A DNA stretch of 64,000 bases from Thermoanaerobaculia bacterium (lineage in GTDB: Bacteria; Acidobacteriota; Thermoanaerobaculia; Multivoradales; J023). The position numbers and the translations under genes are program-made. Under the pieces are notes generated by a model, which saw only the letters and a list, made by a program, of their open reading frames with translations, was not told the origin of the DNA and ran no database searches. The stretch lies in the NCBI GenBank assembly GCA_030431255.1, contig JAUIJL010000006.1:155850-219849 (forward strand), given 5' to 3'. How positions within the stretch are numbered: position 1 is the stretch's first letter; every line of letters begins with the position of its first letter. Shown here piece by piece: positions 3,388-59,445 of the stretch.

Positions 3388-4605
3388 ATGAACGATCTGA
3401 GCGCCAATCCAGCACAGGGCGACGCCGTCGAGGCGTCCGTCGACACTGCCGCTTCGGCCCCTTCCCAAGAGCCGACTTCGCAAAGGCCGACTTCCCAAGA
3501 GCCGACTTCGCAAAGGCCGACCTGGCCGGAACGGATCAGCTCTTGGTTGAGCAAGCTCCATCCGGAAGAAAAATACGTCATCGCTTTGTCCCTCGTGGGC
3601 ATTCTGGTTTGCCACTTCTTTGGCAAGGGATTCAGCTTTTTCGTCGCCTACGAATATCTGATGATCTTTGCCCGGCACCTGGGGCTGTACTACATGGTCT
3701 CTCGGGTGTTCCTCTTCGTGGGAGAAAATTGGCGACCCACCGGGGCGGCCGGGATCTATTTCCGCCGTTTCTTCTTCGGCCCGATCCGCCCCCGCCACAG
3801 CTATTACGAGGCGGACATCGCGTTCCTCCGGGGTTTCTTCCTGATGTTCGGCGCACTGAGCGTTTACACGAACCTCAAAATTCGTATCCCGTTCATCAAC
3901 GCCTACACGGGCGACGAATTCTTCAAGCAGGTCGACTCCTGGCTCTTCGGCGATCAGCTCTGGCCTTGGCTGACCCAGGTGGTCCGATCTGACCCGGAAT
4001 GGACCAACTTCTTCCAGAATCTCTACTCCCACGACTATATGTACATGGTGATTCTGGTCATGCTGTTCCACATGCGGCGCGATATTTTCGCGATGCGCTG
4101 GTGTTTTGCCTCGGTCGGCGTGCTTTACATCGGCACAATTTTCGTCACCCTCGCCTATCCGTCCCTCGGCCCGTGCTTTTACGCCTGGGAGGAATGGCAA
4201 TGGCTGGCGGACTTGGATCCGCCTCAGATCCACCAAACTCAGTGGAGCCTGGCCCAAACCTTGATTAGCCTGGTGGGCATGGCCGATGTCCAGCCGCGTA
4301 TCGAGGCCCACGCTTTCTACGGCATCGCCGCCTTCCCGAGCCTGCACTGCGGCCACATGATGCTGCTCGTGGTTATCGCTTGGTATCGCTATCGTCTTTA
4401 CACCCTGGTGGCGGCCTCCATGACCTTCCTGACATTCATCGCCACCATGGCCTTCGGTTGGCATTGGGCCGTGGACGGCGTTGCCGGCGCCGCGATTGCG
4501 GTAGTGGTGCCGATCTTCTTGCTGAAGGTCATGCAGAAAGAAGAGGGCGAGGCGTCTTCTTCGCCGGTTTCGGACGCACCCACCGCCGTGGCCGATGCCC
4601 GATGA
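3388..4605 (+). CDS. PAP2_C-type (Aur1/sphingomyelin-synthase-like) lipid phosphotransferase/phosphatase family membrane protein
   Basis: Polytopic membrane protein. C-terminal motifs FPSLHCGH (PSxH-like) and HWAVDGVAGAAI (H-x3-D-V-x2-G) fit the PAP2/PAP2_C C2/C3 motifs. N-terminus carries a perfect 10-aa tandem repeat SQEPTSQRPT x2. Confidence 0.5.
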   Translation: MNDLSANPAQGDAVEASVDTAASAPSQEPTSQRPTSQEPTSQRPTWPERISSWLSKLHPEEKYVIALSLVGILVCHFFGKGFSFFVAYEYLMIFARHLGLYYMVSRVFLFVGENWRPTGAAGIYFRRFFFGPIRPRHSYYEADIAFLRGFFLMFGALSVYTNLKIRIPFINAYTGDEFFKQVDSWLFGDQLWPWLTQVVRSDPEWTNFFQNLYSHDYMYMVILVMLFHMRRDIFAMRWCFASVGVLYIGTIFVTLAYPSLGPCFYAWEEWQWLADLDPPQIHQTQWSLAQTLISLVGMADVQPRIEAHAFYGIAAFPSLHCGHMMLLVVIAWYRYRLYTLVAASMTFLTFIATMAFGWHWAVDGVAGAAIAVVVPIFLLKVMQKEEGEASSSPVSDAPTAVADAR

Positions 4606-25153: not shown

Positions 25154-27196
25154 ATGCTCGCTTTGCCGAACCAGCTCTCGCCCCCTGCTCGACTGGCGAT
25201 CCTGCTCTTATGCGCGGTGCTCGGCGGCGCCCTCGGCGGGCTCGCGGTCTTCGTAGCCGACCAGCTGCGTCTGTGGATTTTTGACGGCTATCTCGTCGCC
25301 GCCGGCTCGTACCTACCGCACTATTGGCGACCGGGCGCTACGTTGGGGCTGGTTTCCTTCCTGGTGACCGCCGGCTTCGACCGCTTCAAGCCGCCGGCTC
25401 ATGCAAGAACGATCCCCCGGATAGCCCTAGACGGAGCTTTGATCGCCTGCGCCGGCTTGTGGGTATTTGCATTCATCCGTCATCACCTGGAGGTCTTCGG
25501 CCCGGTCGCGGACGGCTATTCCCACGAGCCGGCTTGGAGGCCGGCCCTGCTGTGCCTGGCGTTCGCCCTTCCCGCCACGGCCCTAGCGATCGGCCTGCGC
25601 AAGCTTTCTCACCTTTCCTGGCCCCCGGCCCTTTGGCTGGCGTTTCTACCCTTCGCCATCAGCGTGACGTTTCGGGCCCATGGCCGACGTGATGCGGGGG
25701 CCGCGTGGTGGGCCCTGGTGGTCGCGGCAGTCGTGCTCTCAGTGATCGCTCGCCTCGGACGTGGGAATGCCCGTCGGCTTTTCGCGACCGTCACGGCGAC
25801 CCTGATGGCGGCATCCATCGCCGGTGCGTGGTCTCAACGTCCGACCTCGGCACTGGCACCGGCACCGACCTCGAATCCCCCCAACCTGCTGCTCTTGGTG
25901 GTCGACACCCTGAGGTTCGACATCTTCCAGCAGGTGGTGAACGAAACCCCGGAAGGACGCCGCTTTGCCGAGGCCATCAACGGCTCGGCTTGGTTCAGTC
26001 ACACCTTGGCGACGGGACCATGGACCGCGCCGTCCATGGGTTCTGTGCTCACAGGTCTCTATCCCGAAGAGCACGGCTTCATCTCAGCCTCTGACCAGAG
26101 CAGCCACGCGGTCCGTCCCCTGACCGACGCCGCGCCCACCCTGGCGGAAAGGCTCCAAGAGCAAGGCTTTTGGACCGAAGCCGTGATCAGCAATCCACTG
26201 TTGAAGGAATCCAGCGGCATCTCTAGGGGTTTTCACAGATATCGAATTTACGCCGGACCTACGGGTCGGCTCACGGTGTTGGGCACTTTGGAACGATTGG
26301 GTTGGATTGCCGCCGACTACTACCAAAACGCCGACGTCGTGGCCGGCGCCTTTGAAAAGCGGCTGCCGAAAGCCTTGAACAAAGGGCGGCCGTTCTTCTT
26401 CTGGGTGCACTTCATGGATCCCCATGCGCCCCTGAAGAGGCACAGCTTGCCGTGGTTGAAACCGGGGAAGCGCAAGCTGCCGAGCCCGACTGTTTTGCTC
26501 TATCGGGACGAGGTGCGCTTTGTGCTCCGGGAGATCGCCGTCCTGCTGGAGCGGCTCAAAAAACAGGGCCTGCTCGACAACACCACCCTCTTATTTGTGT
26601 CCGACCACGGCGAGATGCTCTCCATGGATCAACGGTCGTCACCACCCCTGGCCCGTACAAAAGGCCACGGTCACGCTTTGCATCAAGAGCTCATGCACGT
26701 GCCGCTGGTGATCCGTCCCGCCGGAGGTCTGCCACAGAATCGTCGGATCGAAGCCCAGGCCAGTCTGGTGGACCTCCACGACACGATTTTGGATCTAGCG
26801 GAGCTCGACAACCCGCGGATCGGATTTGATCGAAAAAGCCTGGCACCTTGGCTGAGCCCAACCGCTCCAGAGGGGCCCGACGTCGCTCGGACCTGGACCT
26901 ACGGCGGCTCGGTGCAAATCGGCGACCCCCAGCACGCCTTCGTCGTCGGCAGCTCAAAGCTCATTCTGCACGACGGACCCCGGCGGCCCGAGCTCTACGA
27001 CCTCGAAACCGACCGCCGGGAGCTTCGGAATCTGGCCCAGGAACAACCGGAGCAGCTCAACCAGCTGCGGCAAAAGCTGTCGTTGATCCGCTCCCAGCTG
27101 CGTCCCGTGGAAGAGAGCGGTCCCTTGGTTTTCGACGACGAAACCCGCCGCCAACTGGAGGCCCTGGGTTATCTAGGCGGCAGCGACGACAACTGA
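25154..27196 (+). CDS. Membrane-anchored alkaline-phosphatase-superfamily 'sulfatase-like' enzyme (paralog C; EptA/LtaS-like topology)
   Basis: N-terminal ~5 TM helices, then LLLVVDTLRFDIF...ATGPWTAPSMGSVLTG and DHGEMLS. C-terminus ...RRQLEALGYLGGSDDN shares its tail with paralogs A/B. Start ATG 25154 (MLALPNQ) was chosen over the ORF-track 25040. Confidence 0.7.
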   Translation: MLALPNQLSPPARLAILLLCAVLGGALGGLAVFVADQLRLWIFDGYLVAAGSYLPHYWRPGATLGLVSFLVTAGFDRFKPPAHARTIPRIALDGALIACAGLWVFAFIRHHLEVFGPVADGYSHEPAWRPALLCLAFALPATALAIGLRKLSHLSWPPALWLAFLPFAISVTFRAHGRRDAGAAWWALVVAAVVLSVIARLGRGNARRLFATVTATLMAASIAGAWSQRPTSALAPAPTSNPPNLLLLVVDTLRFDIFQQVVNETPEGRRFAEAINGSAWFSHTLATGPWTAPSMGSVLTGLYPEEHGFISASDQSSHAVRPLTDAAPTLAERLQEQGFWTEAVISNPLLKESSGISRGFHRYRIYAGPTGRLTVLGTLERLGWIAADYYQNADVVAGAFEKRLPKALNKGRPFFFWVHFMDPHAPLKRHSLPWLKPGKRKLPSPTVLLYRDEVRFVLREIAVLLERLKKQGLLDNTTLLFVSDHGEMLSMDQRSSPPLARTKGHGHALHQELMHVPLVIRPAGGLPQNRRIEAQASLVDLHDTILDLAELDNPRIGFDRKSLAPWLSPTAPEGPDVARTWTYGGSVQIGDPQHAFVVGSSKLILHDGPRRPELYDLETDRRELRNLAQEQPEQLNQLRQKLSLIRSQLRPVEESGPLVFDDETRRQLEALGYLGGSDDN

Positions 27197-27219
27197 TAGA
27201 TCGCCTCATCCACGAAACG

Positions 27220-27320
27220 CCTGGCACCTCTCACGAAACGCCTGGCACCGCGATGAAGCGCCTGGCACCGCGAAGTGCCCGGCACCGCAAAATCTGCACC
27301 GCAAAATCTGCAGCACCGAG
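27220..27320 (+). repeat. Cluster of 4-5 direct copies of a GAAA[CT]GCCTGGCACC-core repeat (REP-like) in a convergent intergenic gap
   Basis: cacgaaacgcctggcacc x2, then gaagcgcctggcacc, gtgcccggcacc, and a degenerate atctgcaccgcaaaatctgcagcacc. All in the same orientation. Confidence 0.7.
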
Positions 27321-27355
27321 CCGAACCCCTGATTCAGCGGTCCGTCAAACGGAAG

Positions 27356-29419
27356 TCACGGGGCGGAACAATATTGAGCGAGCTGGTAATACCCCTCTTG
27401 CCAGTTGATAGGAGTCTCGGCGCACGCCGGCTGCTGAAGGGAAGCACAGGCCTCAACCATGGGATAAGCGCAGACGTTGTCGACGGTCGTATCCCAAGCA
27501 GGACACGGACAGTCGAGTCGGCCGCCCATCGCCGTCAACTGAGACGAGTCGAGAACGCAGCTATCGGTCGCACACGCCTTGTATGCGTCCCACGCCAGAC
27601 GTCGCTCAAGGTCAACATCGATGAGCCCCATGCGCCCGCCACCGTTCACGGAATCCTGCACGTAGTCGCTCCAAGCGAACCAGAAGGCGTGGGCGACTTC
27701 GTCCTCGCTGTATTGGCCGAATAGCGTATAAGCAGCCGACAGGTAGTCGGCCTGCACCGCCGCCGGATCGCCGAAACTCTGCAGGTCGACGAGTGGCACA
27801 CCAAACTCAGTAATCCACAGCGGCACCGGCCGGGACATCAGATTGAGCACGTCGTCGATCGCGCTCTCCATGGTCTGCCCCTGGGGATACGCAGGCACCC
27901 CGGCGAGTCTTTTCCCGTAAGGGTGTACTGCAACGCCGTCGTAGGCCAAGGTTGCGTCGGTTTCGAGCTCGAAGAGGATCTCGTCGAAATAGTCCAACCA
28001 ATTCTGCCCCGCCGGCCCGCTGAGAATTACCGGTTTCGAGCTGACCGTACGCAAAGCCGCAGAGCCCTGGCGGATCAAATCCGGGAAAGCGTTCGACGGG
28101 ACGTCGGTGAGATCGGGTTCGTTCCAGAGCTCGTAAGCATCGACGTAGTCATCGTAGGAATTAGCAAATGACAGCAGATTGTCGGCGAATTGATCTTGGT
28201 ACGCGTACCAAAAGCAATTGCCGGGAATCTGAAAGCGATCCGTCTCACATAAGGTATCGACGAAGGATTGCGAATTGAAGACGACGATCAGATTGATGTT
28301 GGCTTGATTCAACGCTTCGCCGAGGTTGCGGACCATCTCCCAGTTGCCCGCATAAACGATCGTCCGCACCCAGCGCACACCGAGCGCCTGCAGCTGCGCT
28401 ACGGTCGGCGCCGAAACTGGCGGACCGTTAGCGTTGATGGCCAGCCCAAAGCAATTCAGGTTACGTGGACCACCATCGGCGCATGGCGAGCCGCCGATCG
28501 CCTGCCAACCATCGGGATCGCAGCGATACTGCTGGTTGTCGCCGCCGCACACCGTGTAGCCACAATAGGTCGAGTCGGGGTTGATCGCGTTACCCCAGTA
28601 GTCCGAGCCGTTGGTGCAGCGGCAACTCGGCGAAGGGGTCGCGCACGGCGAGCCGCCGCGCGACTGCCAGCCGGAGGTCGTGCACTCGTAGATCTGATTG
28701 TCGGCTCCGCAGACGTCGAGCCCGCAATAGGTCGACGCGGGATCGATTGCATGACCCCAATAGTCGGTTCCACCAGTGCATGTGCAGCTTGTCGGAGAGC
28801 CCGCGCAGGGGCTGCCGCCGCGCGACGCCCAACCTGTCGAAGTGCACTCATAGTTCTGGTTGTCGCCGCCACACACCGTGTAGCCGCAGTACGTTGAGGC
28901 TGGATTGATCGCGTTACCCCAATAATCCGAGCCGCCAGAGCATGAGCAGGACGGTGAAGGCGGCGGTGTGGAGCCGCAGCCACTCGGAAAGGAGTCTTGA
29001 TAGTCGTAGTAGCCGCGCACCCAATCCGCGTCGCTATAAGACGCGTCGCCGTTCGGATCGCAATAACCACCGGGCCAAGTCATGCCACAGCCGGGGGTCG
29101 ATGGCGCATGGTGGCAGAAATTGTCGAAACCGGCCGCCGAGCTGCACGGGCAGCTCTCTGATGCGTTGCAGCCATTCGGATACTGGCCCCGATATTCGTT
29201 GTAGCCACGCACCCAATCAGCGTCGGTGTAAGACGCGTCACCGTTCGGGTCACAATAGCCGCCGGGCCAGGTCATGCTGCAGCCGGCAGTCGAGGGCGCA
29301 TGATGGCAGAAATTGTCAAAACCGGCCGCTGAGCTACACGGACAAACTGCGCCGGCCGTCGCGGGCAGCAGGAGGCAGGTGAAGGCAAGCACGGCGAGAG
29401 CTAAGATAAATCGATGCAT
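27356..29419 (-). CDS. Secreted GH5-family glycoside hydrolase with N-terminal tandem Cys-rich modules
   Basis: Signal peptide. 2 x ~70-aa module (CPCSSAAGFDNFCHHAPST.GC.MTWPGGYCDPNGDASY.DADWVRGY). 3 x ~50-aa module (C.C.GG.DYWG.AI.P.STYCG..VCG.DNQ.Y.C...GW...GGSPCA). Catalytic domain has ELWNEPDL (acid/base NEP) and LWITEFGVP (nucleophile TEFG), the GH5 hallmarks. Cys-rich C-tail. Confidence 0.7.
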   Translation of the reverse strand: MHRFILALAVLAFTCLLLPATAGAVCPCSSAAGFDNFCHHAPSTAGCSMTWPGGYCDPNGDASYTDADWVRGYNEYRGQYPNGCNASESCPCSSAAGFDNFCHHAPSTPGCGMTWPGGYCDPNGDASYSDADWVRGYYDYQDSFPSGCGSTPPPSPSCSCSGGSDYWGNAINPASTYCGYTVCGGDNQNYECTSTGWASRGGSPCAGSPTSCTCTGGTDYWGHAIDPASTYCGLDVCGADNQIYECTTSGWQSRGGSPCATPSPSCRCTNGSDYWGNAINPDSTYCGYTVCGGDNQQYRCDPDGWQAIGGSPCADGGPRNLNCFGLAINANGPPVSAPTVAQLQALGVRWVRTIVYAGNWEMVRNLGEALNQANINLIVVFNSQSFVDTLCETDRFQIPGNCFWYAYQDQFADNLLSFANSYDDYVDAYELWNEPDLTDVPSNAFPDLIRQGSAALRTVSSKPVILSGPAGQNWLDYFDEILFELETDATLAYDGVAVHPYGKRLAGVPAYPQGQTMESAIDDVLNLMSRPVPLWITEFGVPLVDLQSFGDPAAVQADYLSAAYTLFGQYSEDEVAHAFWFAWSDYVQDSVNGGGRMGLIDVDLERRLAWDAYKACATDSCVLDSSQLTAMGGRLDCPCPAWDTTVDNVCAYPMVEACASLQQPACAETPINWQEGYYQLAQYCSAP
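28460..29350 (-). repeat. Intragenic tandem DNA repeats encoding the Cys-rich modules of the GH5 protein
   Basis: Repeated protein modules listed above. Spurious antisense ORFs in this region translate to repetitive peptides. Confidence 0.6.
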
Positions 29420-29682
29420 TGTATTTCCTTGAGAACAGAGTAGACAGGTTTTCGGTAAGCGTACGCGTAAAAAGCATGTTTATTGACCAGTAATATCATC
29501 AGATGACCGCGAATAGATCAGCGACCTAGCTCAATCTGCACATTGTACTTAAAGAGAGACATATTTACAATTTTCGAAATAACGCCCTCAGTGAGTCCAG
29601 CAGACACGCTATGGGAGGCTCCGTCCAGGAGCCCGCCCCGCCGGCCCATAACGGGAAACCTGCGCAATACCCGCCGTAACAA

Positions 29683-29752
29683 AGTACCCGGCACCCACGA
29701 TGAAGGGCACCACGATGAAGTGCCTGGCACCGCGAAATGCCCGGCACCGCGA
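29683..29752 (+). repeat. GCCTGGCACC-core repeat cluster (3-4 copies) upstream of the transposase-like gene
   Basis: gtacccggcacc, gaagtgcctggcaccgcga, aatgcccggcaccgcga; same orientation as the other clusters. Confidence 0.65.
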
Positions 29753-29896
29753 GGTCTCCCGCCAGACCCCAAAAGACGCTCAGCGTCAAGTTTTTTGCCT
29801 CCACTGCAGAATTGGCGCTCTTTTTTCCGTCCTAGCTTCTAAGAAGCCCCGAAGTATGTCTTCTTCGGCCGCCAAACACTCTTAGGAGGCAAAACC

Positions 29897-30877
29897 ATGG
29901 GACGCGAGCCAAGATACGTTCCCCCCAACAGTCTGCAACACGTTACCGACGTCACTTTTCAGAATCGTCCACTTTTACGCCCGTCGAAGGAGGTCAACGA
30001 ACGCATTCTCGGCGTGATTGGGCGAGCGCAAAAGAAATACGAGATGACCATTTGCGGGATAGTCGTTTTATCCACCCACTGGCATTTTCTCCTTCGGCCC
30101 AAGGACGCCTTCCACCTGTCGTCCTTCATGTGCTTCGTTAAAACCAATGTTTCCAAGGAGATCGGCATACATCTTCTCGGCTGGAGAGGTTCCCTCTTCG
30201 GTGGTCGATACCACTCGTCGACTGTCTCTGACGAGGAGATCGCTCAAGTTGGCGTGCTTCGCTATCTCCTCGCTCATGGCCCAAAGGAGCTCTTGGTGGA
30301 TTCCGTCGCGGAGTGGCCCGGAGCCCATAGCGCCGTCCCCACCGTCAAGGGCCAATGCATGGTCGGTGAGTGGATCGATCGCACCTCGTCCTACAGCGCC
30401 CGATCCCGACGGGGCGGATTGATCGACCTGAACGCTTTTACGATCGAGGAGAAGGTTGTGATCTCGCCTCTCCCTTGCTGGGAGCACCTACCCGAGTCCC
30501 AGTGGCGCGGGGCGGTTGGGGCTTTGGTCGACGACATCAACCGTGAGGCTGCTGTGATCCGACGGGATCTCAAGAAAACCAGCCTGGGTGTCACCCGAAT
30601 CTTGGCCAACGATCCGGAGAAACGTCCGAATCACGTGGAAAAGTCTCCGAAACCTAGATTCCATGCCCGAGATCCGGCCGTCTATCGAGCAATGCTCAGC
30701 ATTTGGCGTGAGGTGATCCAAAGCTTTCGAGAGGCCTCGGAGAAGCTTCGCTCCGGGATCCGAAGCGTGGCATTCCCAGAGGGGACTTTCCCGCCTGGGT
30801 TACCGTTCGTACCCTTCAGCGAAGAGACCCTCTTGGGAACTGGGTTGGTCCTGAACCGAGGTCAACCGACCTGCTGA
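29897..30877 (+). CDS. IS200-like HuH/Y1 tyrosine transposase-like protein with ~150-aa C-terminal extension (RAYT-like)
   Basis: MTICGIVVLSTHWHFLL (HuH motif H-x-H + hydrophobics), KTNVSKEI, and WRGSLFGGRYHSSTV (catalytic Tyr region) are colinear with IS200 TnpA (DHVHLL ... WSRGYFVSTVG). The gene and its flanks are visibly AT-richer than the surrounding genome. Confidence 0.55.
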   Translation: MGREPRYVPPNSLQHVTDVTFQNRPLLRPSKEVNERILGVIGRAQKKYEMTICGIVVLSTHWHFLLRPKDAFHLSSFMCFVKTNVSKEIGIHLLGWRGSLFGGRYHSSTVSDEEIAQVGVLRYLLAHGPKELLVDSVAEWPGAHSAVPTVKGQCMVGEWIDRTSSYSARSRRGGLIDLNAFTIEEKVVISPLPCWEHLPESQWRGAVGALVDDINREAAVIRRDLKKTSLGVTRILANDPEKRPNHVEKSPKPRFHARDPAVYRAMLSIWREVIQSFREASEKLRSGIRSVAFPEGTFPPGLPFVPFSEETLLGTGLVLNRGQPTC

Positions 30878-31159
30878 AGCCAGGGTGTCGTCAGCTCTGC
30901 CGGAAGAGCCTCGAACCGGCCCCATTCCTCTTTGATTTCCGGGATCTCGTCCGACGATCTGTCGGACTAGGGAGAGGTACGCCTTGGAGCAGCACTCGCG
31001 ACCCCGACTCGCAGGACGAACGAGCCATCAGCACAGATTGGGCCATTCACCCGTAGATATGCCTGGCACCCTTTCGAGGCTGAGCGCACTTGTAGTGCCG
31101 ACTTTTTTGCTAAGTCATTGAAAACATTAGACCGGGCATCGTGAGCTGCGGAAGTTGGG

Positions 31160-31200
31160 CTAGGCACCGCCGTCAGCGAAATGCCCGGCACCTCTACGAA
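31160..31200 (+). repeat. GCCTGGCACC-core repeat copies (2) downstream of the transposase-like gene; a further single copy lies at ~31055-31071
   Basis: ctaggcaccgcc...gaaatgcccggcacctctacgaa; gatatgcctggcaccc at 31055. Confidence 0.55.
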
Positions 31201-31203
31201 AAG

Positions 31204-32367
31204 CTAAGCCTCCCGCAGCAGACCCGTGATCTCGCGAGTCGACACCGCGATCGCCGGTGCCAGGCCTCCCAGCACACCGGTGAGCACCGCCAAACCCACT
31301 CCCAAAAGCAGGACCGGTGCCGTCAAAGTCAGCTCAAAGGTGATCTCACTAAAAGTGATGAAATTCGTCGTGCCGGCCGAAATCCCATTGAGCGGCAACG
31401 ACAACACCACCCCCAGCAAACCACCGAAGAAACCCAGAATGGCCGACTCCAGCAAAACCGCCGTGAACGTGTGGCTGCGACGAAAGCCGATCGCCCGCAA
31501 GGTCCCGAGCTCCCGGCTGCGGTTGGAGATTTGGGAATACATGGTGTTGGCGGCGGCAAAGCACGCGCCAAAGCCCATGAGCACCGCCATCAGGGTTCCC
31601 AATATCTCGAACATCGCGGTGTTGGCGCTGGTCTGCTCTTCGTAATACTGCACCTCGGGCAACACCTTCGTCCGCCATCGCTGATCCCCTTCGATGGTGG
31701 CCACCAGCTGATCGGCGCTTTCCTTCGACGAGGTGCGCAACCGGATGGAGGACACCGCGTTCGACCGATTGAACGCGTTGCCGATGTCTTCGATGGCCCC
31801 CAGCACCTCCGACTCAGCGCCCCCGCCCCCGGCGGTAAACACGCCGACGACCTGAAAATCGATTCGCCCAAAGCGGACACTCTGGCCGATGGACAGATCC
31901 GGGAATCGCCCGGCCAGGTTGTCGCCGACGATGATCTCCCCCTTGCCGGGCTCGAAATCACGCCCTTCGACGATCTCGAACCCGGGCCGCACGTCTCGGG
32001 TCGTCGGCATGATGCCGCGCACCGTGACGTTGGACTCACTGCCGTCGGTGCGAGAAAAGATTTGCAGCACCACCAGCTCACCGGAGGCCAGGGAGCCCGA
32101 CGGTCCCTGCTCGACCCCCGGCAACGCCGCGATATCGCGGAACACATCCATGGAGAAGCCGCTTTCGGTCTCGCTACGAGCACCGTCGCGCAGGACGATC
32201 AAATTGTCGGGGTCGCCGGTGGCGGAGAAGGCTTTTTCGAGACCCGCGGCCAGGGAGAACACCCCGATGAAAACGATCACCACAAAGGCGATCGACAACA
32301 TGGTCATGAAGGTCGTGGCCTTGCGCACGAAGAGGCTTCGCAGGTTGTATTTGAATGGAATCTTCAT
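31204..32367 (-). CDS. ABC transporter permease, FtsX/MacB-like (4 TM with large periplasmic domain)
   Basis: N-terminal TM (TFMTMLSIAFVVIVFIGVF), a ~220-aa periplasmic domain, and three C-terminal TM helices with the typical FtsX C-terminus ...GLAPAIAVSTREITGLLREA. Confidence 0.8.
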   Translation of the reverse strand: MKIPFKYNLRSLFVRKATTFMTMLSIAFVVIVFIGVFSLAAGLEKAFSATGDPDNLIVLRDGARSETESGFSMDVFRDIAALPGVEQGPSGSLASGELVVLQIFSRTDGSESNVTVRGIMPTTRDVRPGFEIVEGRDFEPGKGEIIVGDNLAGRFPDLSIGQSVRFGRIDFQVVGVFTAGGGGAESEVLGAIEDIGNAFNRSNAVSSIRLRTSSKESADQLVATIEGDQRWRTKVLPEVQYYEEQTSANTAMFEILGTLMAVLMGFGACFAAANTMYSQISNRSRELGTLRAIGFRRSHTFTAVLLESAILGFFGGLLGVVLSLPLNGISAGTTNFITFSEITFELTLTAPVLLLGVGLAVLTGVLGGLAPAIAVSTREITGLLREA

Positions 32368-58857: not shown

Positions 58858-59210
58858 GGGGGCGCACCGGTTTCGACGGGTAACAGGCAGCTCCGTAGTC
58901 GCGTGCCGGATCCATCCGTTAATTGGAACAAAAACACAAAAGCCAACGATAATTTGGCCCTCGCGGCAGCTTGACCGCGCGTCTTGATGACGAGCCCTGA
59001 TCTACGGCTCCCATCAAGGCGCTACTTAAAGTAGATCAATGGGACGCGGTTGGCTTCGGGCCACGTCCCGGATACTTACCGAAGCTGGCCGAGGGGCCGG
59101 GTTGCTTTCCGCCCAAACTCCTCGGCGAGACAAAAACCGGAAAGCTACGCACGTAGAAGCTGCGGATCTGAGTTGCTCGGACGTGGGTTCGATTCCCACC
59201 GCCTCCACCA
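58858..59210 (+). ncRNA. ssrA: tmRNA (ssrA), standard one-piece; tag reading frame GCC AAC GAT AAT TTG GCC CTC GCG GCA GCT TGA = (A)NDNLALAAA
   Basis: 5' GGGGGCGCACCGGUUUCGACGGG (canonical tmRNA 5' end) pairs with the 3' acceptor strand CGCCUCC + A + CCA, including a G3:U wobble. T-arm GGGUUCGAUUCCCAC. The tag ORF ends in ALAAA and is followed by a stop. Confidence 0.85.
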
Positions 59211-59254: not shown

Positions 59255-59445
59255 TTGCCCGGCACCATTTCGAGAAACGCCTGGCACCTCATACTCGGCC
59301 TCTCTGAAGCCATTTCGAGAAATGCCTGGCACCTCATATTCGGCCTCTCTGAAAGATGCCTGGCACCGCTGAGATGCCATTTCGAGAAATGCCTGGCACC
59401 TCATATTTTGCCTCTCTGAAAAATGCCTGGCACCGCTGAGAAGCT
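59255..59445 (+). repeat. Cluster of ~6 GCCTGGCACC-core repeats, including three ~45-bp units (catttcgagaaa[ct]gcctggcacctcata[ct]tcggcctctctgaa), immediately 3' of ssrA
   Basis: Read directly from sequence; same orientation and same core as the clusters at 27.2, 29.7 and 31.1-31.2 kb. Confidence 0.75.

Follow-up and report, generated by a model that had tools for sequence, protein, structure and literature searches.

The Y1 gene and its repeat clusters

The window, by which we mean the whole 64-kb stretch of Thermoanaerobaculia DNA analysed here, carries on its + strand a gene for a 326-aa IS200-like protein with a Y1 HUH nuclease domain, and a short repeat built around the core TGGCACC is clustered on both sides of this gene as well as at two places farther away. 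The initial annotation had reported the clustered repeat and suggested that it and the gene form a variant of the partnership between repetitive extragenic palindromes (REPs) and REP-associated tyrosine transposases (RAYTs). The features on which the analysis rests are the following.

26838–26847, + strand: intragenic repeat copy, CGAAAAA-GCCTGGCACC-T, within the sulfatase open-reading frame (ORF)
27205–27317, + strand: solo cluster with full sites at 27219, 27240, 27260, and 27277
29686–29748, + strand: upstream cluster with copies at 29686 (degenerate), 29722, and 29739, and an extra degenerate GGGCACC
29806–29835, + strand: conserved upstream block, GCAGAATTGGCGC...TTCCGTCCTAGC, found in the window and at loci L002, L003, L124, L206, and L207
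29897–30877, + strand: Y1 gene encoding the 326-aa two-domain protein (Pfam Y1_Tnp, E 1e-7)
30875–30995, + strand: structured 3′ element directly past the stop codon (alignment A2)
31061–31070, + strand: first downstream copy, 184 nt past the Y1-gene stop, at the family's conserved 'right-end' position
31183–31192, + strand: second downstream copy, GCGAAAT-GCC-C-GGCACC-T, with a degenerate AGGCACC before it at ~31162
59257–59434, + strand: solo cluster after ssrA with copies at 59257, 59279, 59324, 59358, 59391, and 59425

Matches to GCCYGGCACC number 19 in the window against 0.74 ± 0.76 expected from dinucleotide-preserving shuffles of the window (n = 100, none of which reached 19), an excess of ~25-fold that confirms the repeat family as real. 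A 5′ arm, (C)GAA[AG][CT], is present on 16 copies in five intergenic clusters and one intra-ORF copy, and all 16 lie on the + strand. The earlier statement that every copy lies on one strand is limited to these arm-bearing copies, because the bare 10-mer also occurs on the − strand at 31256 (inside an FtsX/MacB ORF), 37382, and 42569. Together with a + strand match at 3670, these armless 10-mers look like background, though four exceeds the shuffle expectation. The match at 26838 in the sulfatase ORF could be due to chance or could be a repeat copy within the gene. Full-arm copies were also seen inside Pfam-supported ORFs at locus L206, a homologue from a sister sample (1861, − strand, and 7378, + strand), the ORFs holding arm-bearing copies being those for sulfatase, BNR/sortilin, and radical SAM/SPASM proteins; both L206 copies translate as N-A-W-H-R and could be insertions or coincidences with coding motifs.

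Three of the five clusters are located in convergent 3′–3′ gaps, and two of the five are away from the gene. The first of these solo clusters, at 27.2 kb, lies 2.6 kb upstream of the Y1 gene between a sulfatase gene (+) and a glycoside hydrolase gene (−) that converge on it, and its four complete sites are spaced 21, 20, and 17 nt apart; Tandem Repeats Finder (TRF) reported periods of 20/21/17/14 and sub-repeats of GCACC plus 9 nt that trail the 27277 site as far as ~27312. The 29.7-kb cluster is in direct orientation in a divergent gap, 150–210 nt before the ATG of the Y1 gene, and the copies at 31061 and 31183 both lie where the Y1 gene and the gene for an FtsX/MacB permease (31204–32367, − strand) converge. 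The second solo cluster is ~28 kb downstream of the Y1 gene and starts 47 nt past the tmRNA gene (58858–59210), with a large Calx-beta/propeller ORF on the − strand converging on it from the other side. Its six copies are arranged in 34/45/67-nt units that carry a CT-rich tract and the GAAATG arm of the family consensus.

The consensus of the repeat is CTTC-N-CGAA-N-YGCC-T-GGCACC-T (for the window copies, cgaGAAaTGCCtGGCACC), so that the conserved unit extends beyond what had been claimed. Units are 17–45 bp long around the core TGGCACC, and the shortest period, 17 nt, corresponds to complete sites, G-CGAAGT-GCC-C-GGCACC, abutting head to tail. The initial description of the repeat as non-palindromic stands in that no hairpin forms, but the core itself holds a 9–11-bp palindrome, (G)TGCC-N-GGCA(C). 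Folding of the clusters and single copies as single-stranded DNA (ssDNA), a form of the unit-folding check that had been proposed, was no better than for shuffled sequences, with z-scores of −0.53 and −1.19 for the 27.2-kb cluster, +0.29 and −0.43 for the 29.7-kb cluster, and otherwise +0.26 and +0.15. The ssrA array was the sole one with modest extra folding (z −2.7/−2.4), and it contains short internal palindromes such as CATTTCGAGAAATG. The repeat sequences contain no GTAG tag, and Rfam gave no match in the window between 26.5 and 32 kb.

A large family of two-domain HUH nucleases

The nuclease domain of the protein covers ~aa 1–145 (H61-W-H63, Y123), with Pfam Y1_Tnp matching residues 30–118, and its HUH motif and tyrosine align to their counterparts in ISDra2 TnpA. 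Across 24 aligned homologues, H61, H63, and Y123 do not vary, and the 326-aa protein is predicted to be a catalytically intact Y1 nuclease. The family motifs are [ST]H[WY]H and Y-x3-[HNQ]-[GS]-VKE, the latter reading RY[LVC]L[AS]x[GS][VP]KE in the 24-homologue alignment, from which the Y---NP signature is absent. The AlphaFold model (pLDDT 80) is nearest to E. coli TnpA-REP (PDB 4ER8), which is also the top Foldseek hit, and the NCBIfam RAYT model NF047646 scores 41.6 bits, below its cut-off of 80.

Residues 146–326 form a family-specific C-terminal domain with no match among solved structures. A HMMER scan with this domain against 1.84 billion representatives returned 1305 proteins, 484 of them at E < 1e-10, and because the matches always fall at ~residues 150–305 of proteins of ~305–326 aa, they point to one architecture shared by a large family. 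The named members are all Thermoanaerobaculia, Holophagales, or 'Acidobacteria', and tblastn against plasmids gave no match. A literature search, which was not exhaustive, found no description of this Y1 family, and a search with the motif string returned only eukaryotic primer sequences. This is apparently a large, so far undescribed Acidobacteriota family of two-domain HUH nucleases.

The same core flanks homologous genes

The association between gene and repeat was examined at 80 independent metagenomic loci encoding homologues of 37–63% identity (downstream flanks, n = 71; upstream flanks, n = 70), with k-mers ranked by the number of loci containing them and without use of the window motif. 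Downstream, on the gene's strand, the most widespread 6-, 7-, and 8-mers were GGCACC (42/71), GGCACCT (33/71), and TGGCACCT (24/71). Upstream, the inverted motif AGGTGCCA was among the commonest 8-mers (11 of 70 loci), and only a promoter-like block (CGTCTTAT and its overlaps) was found at more loci. Per kb, TGGCACC occurred 1.38 times on the + strand and 0.23 times on the − strand downstream of these genes, and 0.87 times on the − strand and 0.35 times on the + strand upstream of them; within the genes the density was 0.01/kb, and beyond a distance of 800 bp it was 0.14–0.18/kb.

The position of the site is also conserved, as the first + strand GGCAC[CT]T occurs at a median of 231 nt past the stop codon (interquartile range 203–259) in 40 of the 66 loci with enough downstream sequence, compared to 8 of 66 in the reverse-strand control. 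The consensus obtained with one copy per locus, CTTC-N-CGAA-N-c-G-cc-T-GGCACC-T, matches the window consensus, and the window repeats are therefore the flanking site of this family. The proposed specific tie between the repeats and the IS200-like Y1 gene is thus upheld by the same core flanking homologues in independent metagenomic loci. Short-read contigs were also inspected for breaks at the repeats, and the frequency, 15/108 vs 9% in controls, was unconvincing.

Downstream of the gene, the family's copies are direct rather than inverted by 47 to 8; upstream, they are inverted rather than direct by 24 to 14. Both flanks of the window gene are direct, and the same-strand arrangement noted initially is accordingly peculiar to the window and does not extend to the family as a general trait. 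Within a locus, the 10-nt 5′ arms on either side of the gene resemble each other (0.64) more than do arms taken from different loci (0.44; Mann–Whitney p = 0.009), while the 3′ arms showed no significant difference between same-locus and different-locus likeness. The variant cores GGCACT, GTCACC, and GGAACC replace GGCACC at some loci, and then on both flanks.

A similar pattern is seen between paralogues. The source contig is listed with two, the window gene and P0013, which are 62% identical to each other. The downstream site of the window gene is GCC-TGGCACC, while GGG-TGGCACC is found downstream of P0013 (on the same contig as listed) and of L206; GCC-type copies lie upstream of L206, and an inverted GGCACA variant lies upstream of P0013. 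Since GCC-type copies are found away from the gene and beside L206 and P0013 (there as the GGCACA variant), the GCC variant appears to be the one that spread in this lineage. Comparison of these sequences indicates that the TGGCACC core is family-wide and that the arms are locus- or paralogue-specific.

These data also bear on the suggestion, made initially as an alternative, that the repeats are operator sites, or more generally promoter elements such as transcription-factor sites or sigma-54 −24 boxes. The −24 hexamer of sigma-54 promoters is TGGCAC, which the core matches, and one cluster precedes the Y1 gene in a divergent promoter region. However, with sigma-54 spacing (GG-N10-GC; TGGCAC-N5-TTGC), a TGC is correctly placed at only 4 of 214 TGGCACY sites, which largely rules out a sigma-54 promoter identity. 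An operator role is unlikely because three of the five clusters are in 3′–3′ gaps and because the motif is associated, across metagenomes, with the gene family and not with promoters; the sites are, moreover, tandem at 17–45-nt periods. Overall, we regard a promoter or operator function of the repeats as highly improbable.

Anatomy of the gene unit

The gene, with the flanking DNA that is conserved along with it, forms a unit in which a putative promoter of its own is followed by the gene, a structured element of ~120 nt, a spacer of variable length, and the site, CTTC-N-CGAARY-N3-4-T-GGCACC-T, to which most relatives add an inverted copy upstream. The conserved upstream block at 29806–29835, which can also be given as GCAGAATTGGCGC ... 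TTCCGTCTTAT, is probably the Y1 gene's own promoter, and TCCGTCTTAT was the top upstream k-mer across the 80 loci. The 3′ element consists of an CTGCCGGAAGAGC hairpin, a CTTTGAT..CCGGG segment (CTTTGAYNTCCGGG), a 6–7-bp hairpin, and a box, GGGAGAGGTGTG; in the window, the second hairpin has 7 bp and is at 30949–30967, and the box is GGGAGAGGTA at 30970–30979. Four pairs of the hairpin show compensatory changes on both sides, a covariation that rests on a within-subfamily alignment. An nhmmer search with a profile of the element gave 13 matches, all within 40 nt past the stop codon of a homologue, and no solo copies.

The box GGGAGAGGTGTG, as found in the window, L003, and L124–L180, holds GAGGTG, the complement of CACCTC, which is the end of the core plus TC, and the box, ~100 nt before the site, might represent an inverted and degenerate version of it. 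Long-range pairing of the box with the site through this 6-nt complement was considered, but the arms do not co-vary and we make no claim for it.

Two paralogues from one 12-Mb genome, with proteins that are 82% identical, delimit the unit further. Their DNA similarity spans about −105 to +105, is lost in a diverged spacer of ~75 nt, and returns for ~45 nt around GAAATGAGT-GGCACC-TCA before it stops. Because the site was kept between these paralogues while the adjoining 75-nt spacer diverged, it appears to be a constrained component of this unit.

In the 12.18-Mb sequence OZ375331.1 (L204, L205), at least six Y1 paralogues of 78–85% identity occur in unrelated neighbourhoods, a lineage-specific expansion without near-identical copies. 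The closest homologue of the window gene with flanking DNA, P0006 (L003), is 73% identical and also lies in an unrelated neighbourhood. The 90%-identity cluster of the window protein has one member on three contigs, which seem to be separate assemblies of a single locus.

Such a unit could be read as a self-moving insertion sequence of ~1.5 kb, made up of inverted site, promoter, gene, 3′ element, and site, with the solo clusters being leftover or duplicated ends. The mostly inverted flanks of the family (24 inverted upstream, 47 direct downstream) would suit this layout, as would the paralogues scattered over different neighbourhoods in one 12-Mb genome and the unrelated surroundings of P0006. 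Against it, near-identical copies are missing, the 90%-identity cluster having its one member and paralogues being at most 85% identical, and the 3′ element is never found without the gene whereas the short sites do occur alone. The flanks in the window are direct, and the solo clusters are tandem and one-stranded, unlike the inverted pairs of miniature transposons. We therefore consider a self-moving insertion sequence an unlikely explanation.

Comparison with known systems

REP repeats were taken to be 20–40-nt imperfect palindromes with a 5′ GTAG/GTGG tag. The present family resembles REP/RAYT systems, or REPtrons (E. coli YafM, PDB 4ER8; Pseudomonas REPIN-RAYT), in its Y1 HUH fold with HUH motif and catalytic tyrosine, in a gene flanked by its own repeat family whose short members recur in other intergenic DNA, and in paralogues that are diverged, low in copy number, and equipped with their own repeat variants. 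It differs in that the window repeats lack a stem-loop and a GTAG or CGTC tag and form one-strand tandem arrays instead of inverted pairs. At 326 aa, the protein has twice the length and a novel C-terminal domain, shows Y-x3-[HNQ]-[GS]-VKE in place of Y---NP, and carries S/T and not D/N before HUH (PMC6006769, Table 1). The gene is also not single-copy and vertically inherited, as there are several paralogues and the 73%-identical P0006 is in an unrelated neighbourhood.

The TIRtrons, with their terminal inverted repeat (TIR)-associated tyrosine transposases (TIRYTs; Di Nocera et al. 2013, PMC3733652), correspond to TnpAY1 subclass 2.1 (Quentin et al. 2018, PMC6006769) and consist of Y1 genes with inverted, non-REP repeats on either side; these repeats have a short core and sometimes form small families of single copies, dimers, or clusters (PMC3733652). 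Both systems have non-REP flanking repeats whose short core is conserved and lies at a more or less constant distance. A Pseudomonadota metagenome-assembled genome (MAG; L018, 1–1250) has a subclass-2.1/TIRYT-like Y1 gene (NHYH, YIVLNP, and a helix-turn-helix (HTH) tail) directly trailed by six tandem GACCCCGGTG repeats, and because the gene adjoins these repeats, a described subclass shows the same layout of gene and short tandem repeats. The core in our family is nevertheless TGGCACC and not GGGGWSAS, Y---NP is absent, Pfam finds Y1_Tnp only and no DnaA-C-like HTH tail, and the window flanks are direct and not inverted (though family upstream copies mostly are, 24:14). Published Acidobacteria TIRYTs are proteins of a different type, shorter (roughly 130–200 aa as aligned) and with HVH and Y---NP (PMC3733652), and the signature peptides of this family are not present in the alignment file of that paper.

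With the IS200/IS605 TnpA proteins (IS608, ISDra2), the family shares the catalytic core, in which the HUH and tyrosine align, an asymmetric gene unit with a conserved hairpin near one end, and the one-strand behaviour expected of ssDNA enzymes. Unlike these, it has no tnpB partner and no near-identical multiple copies (paralogues ≤85%), its hairpin is 3′ of the gene only with none found at the upstream end, its protein has 326 aa vs ~150 aa, and its short sites have spread without the gene. TnpAY1 class 3 is known from Planctomycetes, Acidobacteria, and Proteobacteria, with ~600 atypical structures in Solibacter usitatus, and comprises proteins of ~178 aa with NHVH and Y----Q whose repeats form secondary structures that have a CnGA foot (PMC6006769). 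The two have in common that they occur in Acidobacteria, that a genome holds several related copies of the gene, and that they stand between insertion sequences and REPtrons in character, but length (326 vs ~178 aa), motifs, and repeat type differ. All 12 tabulated TnpAY1 subclasses have D/N before HUH and Y---Q or Y---NP (PMC6006769).

The family thus fits none of REP/RAYT, TIRYT/subclass 2.1, and IS200/IS605, and is closest in behaviour to REP/RAYT and TIRtron/TIRYT. The suggestion of a REP/RAYT-like variant holds for the gene-tied repeats, the TnpA-REP-like fold, and the copies away from the gene, and fails for the stem-loop, the GTAG tag, the Y---NP signature, and the RAYT model score. The initial annotation was right in kind, in that this is a partnership between a tyrosine transposase and a repeat, but not a classical REP/RAYT system.

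Similar arrays in other bacteria

A genome collection was scanned for two adjacent copies of the motif, and the listed matches were mostly chance ones in high-GC genomes. Among the matches listed, same-core arrays were found in Thermoanaerobaculia and other Acidobacteriota, Geomesophilobacter, Solirubrobacteraceae, and Gemmatimonadaceae, in a Planctomycetota MAG, where the core is at the tip of a long hairpin, and in Lederbergia graminis, where a 13-bp palindrome, GGTGCCWGGCACC, lies in three successive gaps between ordinary genes. Arrays with the core (G)GTGCCWGGCAC(C) are located as follows.

L094, 4290–6195: Bacillota
L105, 4209–4251: Geobacterales
L006, 5860–7767: Planctomycetota
L096, 5690–5767: Actinomycetota
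L031, 1127–1174: Gemmatimonadota

The 5′ flank of most such arrays is purine-rich and ends in GT/GC (e.g., AAGT, AGGT), and no Y1-family homologue was found near them within the 8-kb loci.

Some insertion sequences target REPs, and the arrays could likewise be a repeat of the host that is independent of the Y1 units, such as sites bound by another protein (GTGCCNGGCAC), with the Y1 units inserting beside them. Arrays of the same core with similar arms in other phyla, lacking a Y1 homologue within 8 kb, favour this explanation, particularly as the named members of the Y1 family are all Acidobacteriota; the core palindrome (G)TGCC-N-GGCA(C) would suit a dimeric binder of double-stranded DNA, and L206 has GCC-type copies upstream but a GGG-type copy downstream. 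It is harder to reconcile with the fixed distance from stop codon to site and with the retention of the site between diverged paralogues as nearby DNA decays. Locus-specific arms are common to both flanks and inverted, an outcome not expected of insertion into one pre-existing site. The palindromic GCC is, in addition, one of several arm variants (GGG, CCC, GAA, and others). An independent host repeat is on balance an improbable source of the arrays.

Surroundings of the clusters

No integrase or island was found at ssrA in the 4.5 kb examined past the gene. Between 56000 and 64000, the G+C content climbs to 68% and the GC skew flips sign past ssrA, this region being filled by the − strand Calx-beta/lactonase-propeller ORF that reaches the window end. 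Since the + strand is C-rich over 1–56 kb by GC skew, it is probably the lagging strand, which is too weak a basis for naming the active strand. The glycoside hydrolase gene (27356–29419, − strand, 687 aa) encodes several cysteine-rich repeats in the N-terminal half of its product, with repeated DNA blocks at ~28450–29330, and Pfam matches the catalytic core only.

Proposed relationship between the Y1 protein and its sites

Given the conserved placement of the site beside homologous genes, we favour, with moderate confidence, the reading that the repeats are cognate DNA sites of the 326-aa Y1 HUH protein, which would act in a RAYT/TIRYT-like manner and whose sites would have been copied into other intergenic gaps. 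The relationship would then be, as we are somewhat inclined to think, of the REP/RAYT or TIR/TIRYT kind but built on a non-hairpin site. In such a scheme, the enzyme would bind and nick ssDNA at or beside TGGCACC through Y123, and the C-terminal domain may help to read a linear rather than a hairpin site. The GAAAY-GCC-arm variant belonging to this gene would have been copied to other intergenic gaps and multiplied there head to tail, new copies being laid beside existing ones or arrays growing by slippage, and multiplication by either route would account for the one-strand clusters. For enzymes of the IS608 type, the insertion point is directly 3′ to a short target sequence, and by analogy a unit ending in its own target could yield such arrays.

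Several points weigh against this reading. To our knowledge, the Y1 enzymes with solved DNA complexes all recognise hairpins, and the sites here do not fold. The downstream core is found at only 40 of 66 loci, with variant cores such as GGCACT, GTCACC, and GGAACC at others, and the enrichment in the far flanks of the metagenomic loci is slight (0.14–0.18/kb vs ~0.10/kb expected). Dispersal is seen in this genome lineage only, and no solo copies were found within ±10 kb of each of two paralogues in the 12-Mb genome. Tandem sub-repeats can also come from ordinary replication slippage, and the role as cognate site is deduced from sequence.

More tentatively, the proteins may constitute an unclassified Y1 branch of ~1,300 clusters at 50% identity, essentially confined to Acidobacteriota, that uses a linear site, CGAARY-N3-4-TGGCACC, and generates paralogue-specific one-strand tandem arrays. 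In such a branch, the C-terminal domain, and possibly also the structured 3′ element, would aid site recognition. If true, this would be a third partnership between a domesticated transposase and a repeat, beside REP-RAYT and TIR-TIRYT, and the arrays in Geobacterales, Planctomycetota, Actinomycetota, and Bacillota would hint at a wider distribution or a shared host factor. For the question of how tyrosine nucleases make and maintain REP-type repeats, the short linear site with its invariant 7-mer and variable arms, the clear paralogue variants, and the 17-nt head-to-tail units together offer a simple substrate for studying recognition, cleavage position, and copying. For Acidobacteriota, where annotation of these genes goes no further than 'transposase' or 'RayT', the family also closes a gap in the TnpA-Y1 classification.

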